A stretch of 64,000 nt of DNA, taken from the sequence record MK962753.1. One strand, given 5' to 3'. Below are positions 5,133 to 29,190 of this stretch, piece after piece (within the stretch, counting starts at the first letter, position 1; the number at the start of each line of letters is the position of its first letter). The stretch comes from Shigella phage JK32. Below the pieces are notes generated by a model. It searched no databases. It saw nothing but the letters and a program-made list of their open reading frames with translations, and was not told the DNA's origin. The translations under genes were made by a program, and so were the position numbers.

Positions 5133-5609
5133 CTATTTGTTAAGCCCTTTAAAACCGAATACTTTCTTTAATGCATGTTCGGTTATGATCTTAAACTCCA
5201 TGTTATGCTTTTGGCATAAATCAACCGCAGCTTTCCATTTTTCTGTGTTCACTGTGTAGGTGTAACACTCTTGCATATATCTTTGCTTAGTCTTAGTGGT
5301 TATTCTTTTTGGCTTTTGTGGTGGTATTGTCTCTTTTGCTGGTTTTACTTCCCATAAAAACTCTTTGCCATCTACAAACTTCACCCAAAAATCCATATGA
5401 TATTTTCTGGATCGTTTATCTGCGCTAGACCAGTAAGGTATAATCACACATTCAGAGTTCCATTTAGCCACGCTAGGACTACGATCCAAAAATTTCATTA
5501 TGTGCAACTCCCAGCTTGACCGATACGTGATCTTGTGCAAGTTATTCCCTTTGTACTTCTCAGGATTTTCCGGCTTATACTTGCCCTTGTAAGTGTTAGA
5601 TCCTCCCAT
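5133..5609 (-). CDS. 4: head completion protein with PD-(D/E)XK-like nuclease motifs
   Basis: 158 aa; motifs RSSWEL ... DFWVKF ... EVKP; position next to divergent gene 53. Confidence 0.6.
   Translation of the reverse strand: MGGSNTYKGKYKPENPEKYKGNNLHKITYRSSWELHIMKFLDRSPSVAKWNSECVIIPYWSSADKRSRKYHMDFWVKFVDGKEFLWEVKPAKETIPPQKPKRITTKTKQRYMQECYTYTVNTEKWKAAVDLCQKHNMEFKIITEHALKKVFGFKGLNK

Positions 5610-25581: not shown

Positions 25582-29190
<3,609 letters not shown>

Follow-up and report, generated by a model that had tools for sequence, protein, structure and literature searches.

A putative homing endonuclease in the fractured terminase gene of Shigella phage JK32 is related to the head-completion nuclease gp4

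The head-completion protein gp4 of T4-type phages is described by Iyer et al. (2021, PMC7824862, citing Benler et al. 2020) as a TnsA-like nuclease with a restriction-endonuclease fold that is required for packaging and head completion; the nuclease activity reported in the literature is that of T4 gp4 alone (Benler 2020, cited in PMC7824862). Genes fractured by split inteins have been described by Dassa et al. (2009, PMC2677866), including one metagenomic gp17 locus (Lake Gatun) with the same unusual split point as the gene reported here, and the AceL-TerL and GOS-TerL inteins combine a very short N-intein fragment (IntN; 25-37 aa) with a long C-intein fragment (IntC; 104-115 aa) and have been shown to trans-splice in vitro (PMC11766414). 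That gp4 is a TnsA-like nuclease, that genes including gp17 may be fractured, and that inteins of the large terminase subunit (TerL) may be atypically split is already known. Here we describe a locus of Shigella phage JK32 (sequence record MK962753.1; the stretch of 64,000 nucleotides analyzed is referred to as the window) in which gene 17, encoding TerL, is interrupted by a split intein and an endonuclease, and in which the nuclease domain of that endonuclease resembles the gp4 encoded elsewhere in the window by gene 4. We consider it quite probable that gene 17 is a fractured gene served by a trans-splicing intein, that the inserted enzyme is a homing endonuclease, and that its nuclease domain is an ancient, sister-like relative of gp4.

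Homology of gp4 and the gene 17-associated nuclease domain

Gene 4 (positions 5133 to 5609, minus strand, stop codon at 5133-5135) encodes the 158-aa head-completion nuclease gp4, which is 100% identical to the annotated head completion protein of Shigella phage JK32, matches the Pfam family PF08722 (Tn7_TnsA-like_N, PD-(D/E)XK clan) with 71.2 bits against a cut-off of 26.5, and matches the PHROG family phrog_218, "head closure," with an E value of 7.7e-58. The domain that resembles it lies on the plus strand at positions 27468 to 27815, as residues ~465 to 580 of the 583-aa open reading frame (ORF) ORF1 (26076 to 27827), which is followed by ORF2 (27808 to 29187), and it was recognized by PF08722, hhalign, an AlphaFold2 (AF2) model, and Foldseek. 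A first-pass annotation of the window had noted that RSSWEL, an acidic D-F, and E-V-K-P occur in the same order in both proteins, had proposed that the two are related through the same fold, and had suggested a profile alignment of gp4 with ORF1 residues ~480 to 583 together with structure prediction and fold comparison. All three motifs were found where they had been placed: in gp4 as RSSWEL (aa 30-35; nt 5505-5522), HMDFWVKF (aa 71-78), and WEVKPAKE (aa 86-93), and in ORF1 as HNFRSSWEL (aa 486-494; nt 27531-27557), ITDFVDHDN (aa 526-534), and YEVKPKR (aa 538-544; nt 27687-27707). The predicted catalytic residues are E34, D73, E87, and K89 in gp4 and E493, D528, E539, and K541 in ORF1, and at the corresponding columns conservation is complete or exceeds 92% in the gp4 family (78 sequences) as well as in the ORF1-domain family (151 sequences).

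Motifs of the E...D...ExK type are common across PD-(D/E)XK families, and a pairwise BLASTP comparison of gp4 with ORF1 gave 31% identity over 85 aa at an E value of only 0.005. Both points are compatible with the view that the shared motifs stem from generic convergence or superfamily membership of PD-(D/E)XK nucleases and that gp4 and the endonuclease are not specifically related. Against this view, when alignments of the two families (150 endonuclease representatives out of 1491 and 77 gp4 homologues) were compared by hhalign, ORF1 residues 465 to 580 aligned with gp4 residues 8 to 150 over 114 columns with a probability of 99.2% (E value of 7e-20), and a repeat with independently assembled alignments gave a probability of 99.0% over 117 columns (E value of 5.6e-18); the aligned columns include segments beyond the catalytic core. 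When searched against 5.8 billion proteins, the endonuclease-domain profile recovered genuine gp4 proteins, which score 130-214 bits on the gp4 hidden Markov model (HMM), at database-wide significance (E values of 1e-12 to 2e-8). In a six-frame scan of the 64-kb window, the endonuclease HMM matched only ORF1 and gp4 (E value of 4e-9), and the gp4 HMM matched only gp4 and ORF1 (E value of 6e-6). Moreover, profiles were compared with single sequences under the same conditions, using a T7 endonuclease I (Endo I) sequence of which two stretches agree with the PDB match given below. The endonuclease profile matched gp4 with an E value of 1e-9 and T7 Endo I with 2e-5, whereas the gp4 profile matched the endonuclease with 7e-13 and T7 Endo I with 2e-4, so that gp4 surpassed T7 Endo I by four to eight orders of magnitude in this like-for-like comparison. 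We regard the generic-motif explanation as very improbable. Chance similarity of the motifs was likewise rejected, as it is contradicted by the profile alignments, the database-wide profile search, and the like-for-like comparison with T7 Endo I.

ORF1 residues 506 to 574 matched PF08722 with 34.5 bits (cut-off of 26.5), and this family is present on both proteins in the precomputed annotation; the ORF1 domain also matched the Pfam model Phage_endo_I with 29.0 bits, just below the cut-off of 29.1. When the C-terminal part of ORF1 was compared with PHROG, phrog_15427, "endonuclease," ranked first (1.3e-48), followed by two unnamed families and then by the gp4 family (6.7e-10), while the reverse matches from gp4 were phrog_22215 (2.6e-7) and phrog_15427 (3.9e-4). 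Outside the three motifs, the likeness extends to an N-terminal G-x-(F/Y)-x-P segment, an (I/V)PY strand, and a C-terminal K..AA..WC..G..F..ITE helix-strand. As judged from these comparisons, gp4 and the ORF1 nuclease domain are true homologues across nearly all of gp4, and both nucleases belong to the TnsA/T7 endonuclease I branch of the fold. Among the annotated PHROG and Pfam families that matched, gp4 is, by its sequence profile, the closest to the endonuclease domain. The ORF1 domain falls short of the scores of gp4 orthologues (29 bits versus 130-214 bits on the gp4 HMM; 40 bits versus 196 bits for gp4 on phrog_218) and, unlike the single-domain gp4 of ~150 aa, forms the C-terminal part of a 302-aa module fused to the N-terminal portion of TerL and IntN.

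AF2 models computed with the family alignments as input both reached a predicted local distance difference test (pLDDT) score of at least 93 (93.2 for ORF1 residues 441 to 583 and 93.7 for gp4). When the gp4 model was searched against predicted viral structures (BFVD), gp4 orthologues came first, and rank 7 was taken by the 583-aa ORF1 protein itself (A0A5B9MV75; E value of 3e-6, template modeling [TM] score of 0.51, 125 columns), after which further members of the endonuclease family followed. For the endonuclease model, matches within its own family were followed by multi-domain phage proteins that resemble Endo I and then by entries named "head completion nuclease" with E values of ~1e-6 to 1e-5. 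Its best match in the PDB by Foldseek was TnsA (1t0f/1f1z; E values of 8e-4 to 2e-3, TM scores of 0.55-0.57), with I-Bth0305I (E value of 7e-3, TM score of 0.43) and Vsr (E value of 0.06) ranking below it at TM scores of 0.41-0.43. The modest TM scores (0.5-0.57) are a further point on the side of the generic-motif explanation. A PDB sequence search returned no solved structure for gp4 or the endonuclease family; the endonuclease domain had a marginal sequence-profile match to T7 Endo I (1m0d, E value of 0.002). The models predict a restriction-endonuclease-like fold for both gp4 and the ORF1 domain. The proposal of a common fold was thereby borne out by the common PF08722 match, the hhalign probability of 99%, and the matching models, with a likeness that exceeds the three motifs.

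Gene 17 and its split intein

The gene 17 region is 95-97% identical to that of RB49-like coliphages of the genus Krischvirus, and the window phage is an RB49-like (Krischvirus) phage of the T4 type. Alignment with RB49 gp17 delimited the parts of the locus, all of which lie on the plus strand. The N-extein (26076 to 26837; TerL residues 1-254, carrying Terminase_6N positions 5-106) ends at the Walker B sequence ...FIYIDE and is followed immediately by IntN (26838 to 26918; ~27 aa, the boundary with the endonuclease being approximate), which starts CVSGLTKV... with the nucleophile Cys255 as its first residue and is homologous to the IntN of the terL-N genes of Tequatrovirus HY03 and Shewanella phage Thanatos-2. 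The endonuclease module (26919 to 27827; ORF1 residues 282 to 583, followed by the stop codon at 27825-27827) continues in frame with IntN. ORF2 lies in the +1 frame and overlaps ORF1 by 20 nt; its ATG (27808) and the Shine-Dalgarno sequence GAGGA (27795-27799) 8 nt upstream of it fall within the last codons of ORF1 (27795 to 27810). ORF2 encodes the 106-aa IntC (27808 to 28125; MNFWN...VESHN), which contains all Hint blocks but the first, and the C-extein (28126 to 29187; TerL residues 255-607, starting CAFIQNW and carrying Terminase_6N positions 107-213 and Terminase_6C). Excision of the 1288-nt insert in silico yields a 1824-nt gene that is colinear with RB49 gene 17, and the intein junctions are IYIDE/CVSG... 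and ...VESHN/CAF, with Cys1 and Cys+1 as nucleophiles.

The joined intein was not recognized as Hint or Intein by Pfam. A phmmer comparison of IntC with the PDB matched 6dsl_B, "consensus engineered intein CatC," over the whole fragment (residues 27-134 of the joined intein) with an E value of 6.2e-13; this match settles the identity of the intein and places it in the AceL-TerL/GOS-TerL group. The 20-nt overlap around CTT TTG G could be read as a sign that a +1 ribosomal frameshift joins ORF1 to ORF2 or that the break is a sequencing error, in which case the intein would be continuous and the endonuclease nested within it. Annotations of phages kaaroe, TB34, and Thanatos-2 show the same two-ORF layout, a finding that speaks against a sequencing error. 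The stop and start codons are arranged identically in independent genomes from several genera, the three ORFs of HY03 are cleanly separated, ORF2 possesses a Shine-Dalgarno sequence of its own, and homologous TerL inteins are naturally split (PMC2677866, PMC11766414). A frameshift-joined continuous intein was rejected on the conserved layout, the Shine-Dalgarno sequence, and the naturally split homologues, and we give this explanation hardly any credence. The first-pass annotation had pictured the nuclease as embedded in the gene 17 intein, and this picture has to be replaced by one of two overlapping ORFs in which the endonuclease continues the reading frame of the 27-aa IntN. On the sequence evidence, gene 17 is a fractured gene, split in two overlapping ORFs by an atypically split AceL/GOS/Cat-TerL intein.

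We propose the following course of events for this locus. The 1288-nt mobile insert, situated exactly after the Walker B codons (IYIDE/C), would break gene 17 into its two overlapping ORFs, of which ORF1 would give one polypeptide consisting of TerL(1-254), the 27-aa IntN, and the 302-aa endonuclease, and ORF2, from its own ribosome-binding site, would give the 106-aa IntC and TerL(255-607). By analogy with homologues that splice in vitro, IntN and IntC most likely associate and trans-splice to yield the 607-aa terminase, with the predicted splice-junction peptide ...FIYIDECAFIQNW..., and this reaction would free the IntN-endonuclease along with IntC. The context of the endonuclease suggests that it most likely cuts the intein-less gene 17 of co-infecting relatives, and repair of the cut allele would copy the insert (homing). 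The T4 late-promoter motif (TATAAATA) does not occur inside the insert; its sole occurrence is at 29183, before gene 18.

A second, unrelated gene 17 intein was observed in Krischviruses at the Walker A site (GK/TTA). It is continuous, comprises 331 aa, and carries a LAGLIDADG domain, and it was seen in Escherichia phage FL15 (PP400778.1; locus L004, 1569-2561), where the gene is misannotated as "replicative DNA helicase DnaB." The metagenomic protein P0002 has this Walker A intein plus a Walker B split intein with endonuclease, and the metagenomic protein P0009 (542 aa) starts with a C-intein piece, ...SNGILSHN/TSAL (Walker A), and ends with IntN and endonuclease (Walker B). P0009 resembles part of a three-piece terminase, and its TerL would require two trans-splicing reactions.

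The endonuclease family, its distribution, and its mobility

A nuclease at the C terminus, preceded by variable N-terminal parts and NUMOD3, is the usual build of phage homing endonucleases. In the window protein, the module opens with an N-terminal helical region; two zinc-ribbon-like clusters of the Cys4 type follow at aa 352-378 and aa 401-420, then a NUMOD3-like segment at aa 445-466, and finally the nuclease domain. NUMOD3 was found in the homologues P0001, P0059, P0115, P0281, and P0293. A word-indexed homologue search with the full 302-aa endonuclease gave one match, and the family was gathered by an exhaustive search of representatives and a profile search; it comprises 1491 representatives, most of which are ~300 aa long with the nuclease at the C terminus and variable N-terminal parts. 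No Vsr match was obtained for the ORF1 domain in Pfam, and the family consensus is DFxDxxNK, without the conserved His of the EDxHD motif. The sequence GAGG (26910-26913) stands 5-8 nt before the ATG codons at 26919/26922, which could, as far as the sequence indicates, provide an internal start for separate translation of the endonuclease; the free-standing homologues P0004-6 and P0010 (287-302 aa) begin at the start of the module.

The insert was found in ~6 Krischvirus records, and the others, covering 66% of the query, have a precise empty site; among the six phages, the insert gene is 98-100% conserved. A homologous intein with endonuclease occupies the same site in Tequatrovirus HY03 and Shewanella phage Thanatos-2, and HY03-like matches adjacent to terL were obtained in Yersinia phages TG1 and phiR1-RT and in Pseudomonas phage PspYZU05. 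Thanatos-2, like the window, has the fused form of the endonuclease, and HY03 encodes it as a separate 199-aa ORF. The HY03 terL-N ORF runs beyond the 27-aa IntN with ALAITQKEAKDAQK and then stops (window 26838-26960 versus L005 2365-2496); this tail corresponds by homology to the start of the window endonuclease module, and the first ~105 residues are missing from the HY03 endonuclease. The separate endonuclease of 199 aa therefore seems to have arisen by deletion from the fused version of 302 aa.

Members of the same family were also found in other fractured genes. In Salmonella phage S16 (NC_020416.1; L008, 1140-3866), a canonical split intein interrupts uvsW, with an IntN of ~95 aa after MMNDE/C and an IntC of ~44 aa before C+1, and the 291-aa family member gp114.1, annotated as hypothetical, lies between the two uvsW halves. 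In Campylobacter phage CP21 (NC_019507.1; L007, 505-3367), phoH is fractured after VIVDE/C and the intervening endonuclease has decayed into pieces, one of which, CP21_059, is annotated as "head closure" in RefSeq and as "Tn7 TnsA transposase" in GenBank, evidently because of its similarity to gp4 and TnsA. The metagenomic proteins P0059 and P0115 are UvsW-IntN-NUMOD3-nuclease fusions. The insertion sites in terL, uvsW, and phoH all directly follow the Walker B hhhDE motif and precede a Cys, and at the Walker B site of the essential TerL gene the ORF1 endonuclease itself is flanked by IntN and IntC. The presence of this family between split-intein halves of uvsW and phoH as well suggests a homing endonuclease. 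Among the genomes compared at the gene 17 flanks, sites 26798 (-40) and 26834 (-4) have C in the insert carriers (window phage, kaaroe, and TB34) and T in the insert-less RB49 and FL15, and they could be target-site or co-conversion markers in this small sample of five genomes.

These features have to be weighed against the possibility that the nuclease is no longer homing and is instead a decaying relic, or has been domesticated for terminase function or head completion as a second gp4-like activity. The endonuclease is physically fused to a fragment of the TerL ATPase, nucleases of the gp4 type work in packaging and head completion (PMC7824862), the Campylobacter phage copy is in pieces, and there is no clear co-conversion tract among the five genomes. 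However, the window copy has an intact set of catalytic residues, which are conserved over 151 representatives, the insert gene shows the near-identity noted above in six phages, the family splits three host genes at Walker B sites in the manner typical of mobile endonucleases, and an intact gene 4 is retained by the insert-carrying phage. A relic or domesticated nuclease is, in our view, unlikely. From its genomic context, the endonuclease is most likely a homing endonuclease that spreads the split intein.

Direction of descent and comparison with known systems

The first-pass annotation had offered recruitment from gp4 as one origin of the intein-associated nuclease; in that scenario, gene 4 of a T4-like phage would have been duplicated, and the copy would have gained DNA-binding modules and become the homing endonuclease of the intein. 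Recruitment would agree with the position of gp4 as the closest of the matched annotated families, with the occurrence of both families in T4-like phages, and with the existence of proteins that score equally on both HMMs, some of which carry NUMOD3. The identity values are less favorable to it, as the ORF1 domain shares 40-55% identity with endonucleases from numerous unrelated phages but only 22-31% with the resident gp4. The profile distances given above place the endonuclease family between T7 Endo I and gp4, the endonuclease profile being nearer to T7 Endo I than gp4 is, and gp4 as the derived branch fits equally well or better. In a neighbor-joining tree rooted with T7 Endo I, the endonuclease clade (60% bootstrap) is sister to gp4 plus intermediates (50%) and is not nested in gp4. 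Recruitment as it had been stated is thus left unsupported, given the low identity to the resident gp4 and the sister position in a weakly supported tree, and we think it improbable that the endonuclease was taken directly from a T4-like gene 4.

The intermediates (P0277, P0280-P0284, P0286, P0293, P0294, P0313, P0315, and P0326) are proteins of 120-240 aa that score equally on both HMMs (60-85 bits) and may bridge the gp4 and endonuclease families. Two of them, P0281 and P0293, carry NUMOD3, and two others (P0277 and P0313; loci L009 and L010) come from phage contigs of ~170 kb on which the neighboring genes are unannotated. The sequences point to a gp4-endonuclease relationship that is old and sister-like, with no recent copying of the resident gene 4, and derivation of gp4 from an endonuclease-like nuclease fits the data no worse than recruitment of the endonuclease from gp4. 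The reverse course, in which gp4 would be the nuclease domain of a homing endonuclease, domesticated after loss of the DNA-binding modules, is hinted at by the NUMOD3-bearing proteins on the gp4 side of the tree together with the placement of the endonuclease between Endo I and gp4. Direct descent of one family from the other, this reverse course included, is a tentative possibility that we rate as somewhat unlikely.

Several observations weigh against the interpretation of the locus as a fractured gene 17 with a homing endonuclease that is anciently sister-like to gp4. Support in the tree is weak (50-60%). Several Endo I-like multi-domain phage proteins outrank gp4 as matches of the endonuclease model, so that the claim of closest relationship leans mainly on sequence profiles. 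In the window protein, the match to Zn_ribbon_3 is weak (E value of 0.0098), and Pfam gave no NUMOD3 match for the NUMOD3-like sequence. Finally, only two synonymous flanking sites (-40 and -4) track with the insert among the five genomes.

No description of a gp4/TnsA-type family as the endonuclease of fractured genes was found in the searchable literature, and nothing relevant emerged when the literature was searched for homing endonucleases of the TnsA or gp4 type in inteins; no experimental characterization of the endonuclease family was found. The locus would add to the homing endonuclease repertoire a large family (~1500 clusters at 50% identity) with a PD-(D/E)XK nuclease of the gp4/TnsA/Endo I type, and it ties a selfish element by clear homology to a core phage assembly enzyme. 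It also accounts for misannotations such as "hypothetical protein," "head closure," "transposase," and two "terminase large subunit" genes. Atypically split TerL inteins are now available in easily grown coliphages, beside the metagenome-derived ones used for protein labeling, so that genetic tests become possible for splicing, for homing, and for what a 302-aa cargo does to a 27-aa IntN.

Of the described nucleases, the T4 gp4 family (phrog_218, PF08722) resembles the endonuclease domain in fold, in the E/D/ExK residues, in the G-x-(F/Y)-x-P segment, and in the C-terminal helix-strand. The endonuclease domain ends a protein that has several domains and a sporadic distribution, whereas gp4 consists of one domain of ~150 aa, is encoded by a core morphogenesis gene, and has an extra insertion of ~20 aa after EVKP. 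The N-terminal catalytic domain of TnsA from Tn7 is the best solved-structure match of the endonuclease domain, but the endonuclease has neither the TnsA C-terminal domain nor a transposon context. T7 endonuclease I is similar by the Pfam Endo I model (29.0 bits) and by 1m0d (E value of 0.002); however, the endonuclease is no stand-alone protein of the junction-resolvase type, and the similarity to Endo I is weaker than that to gp4.

Of the described inteins, AceL-TerL, GOS-TerL, and Cat agree with the window intein in host protein, split point, short IntN, long IntC, and the residues Cys1 and Cys+1. Whereas those inteins are known from metagenomes or as an engineered consensus, the window intein occurs in cultured coliphages, and its IntN bears a 302-aa endonuclease on its C terminus. 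The locus shares with the fractured genes of Dassa et al. (PMC2677866) a split intein that interrupts the gene for an essential phage enzyme and has an endonuclease gene between its halves. The endonucleases of the fractured genes in PMC2677866 and PMC3239194 (I-Bth0305I) are of the GIY-YIG or Vsr-like/EDxHD type, whereas that of the window is gp4/TnsA-like. Moreover, the endonuclease there is a free-standing ORF, and the in-frame fusion of IntN and endonuclease in the window, by which the two are translated as one polypeptide, departs from that arrangement.

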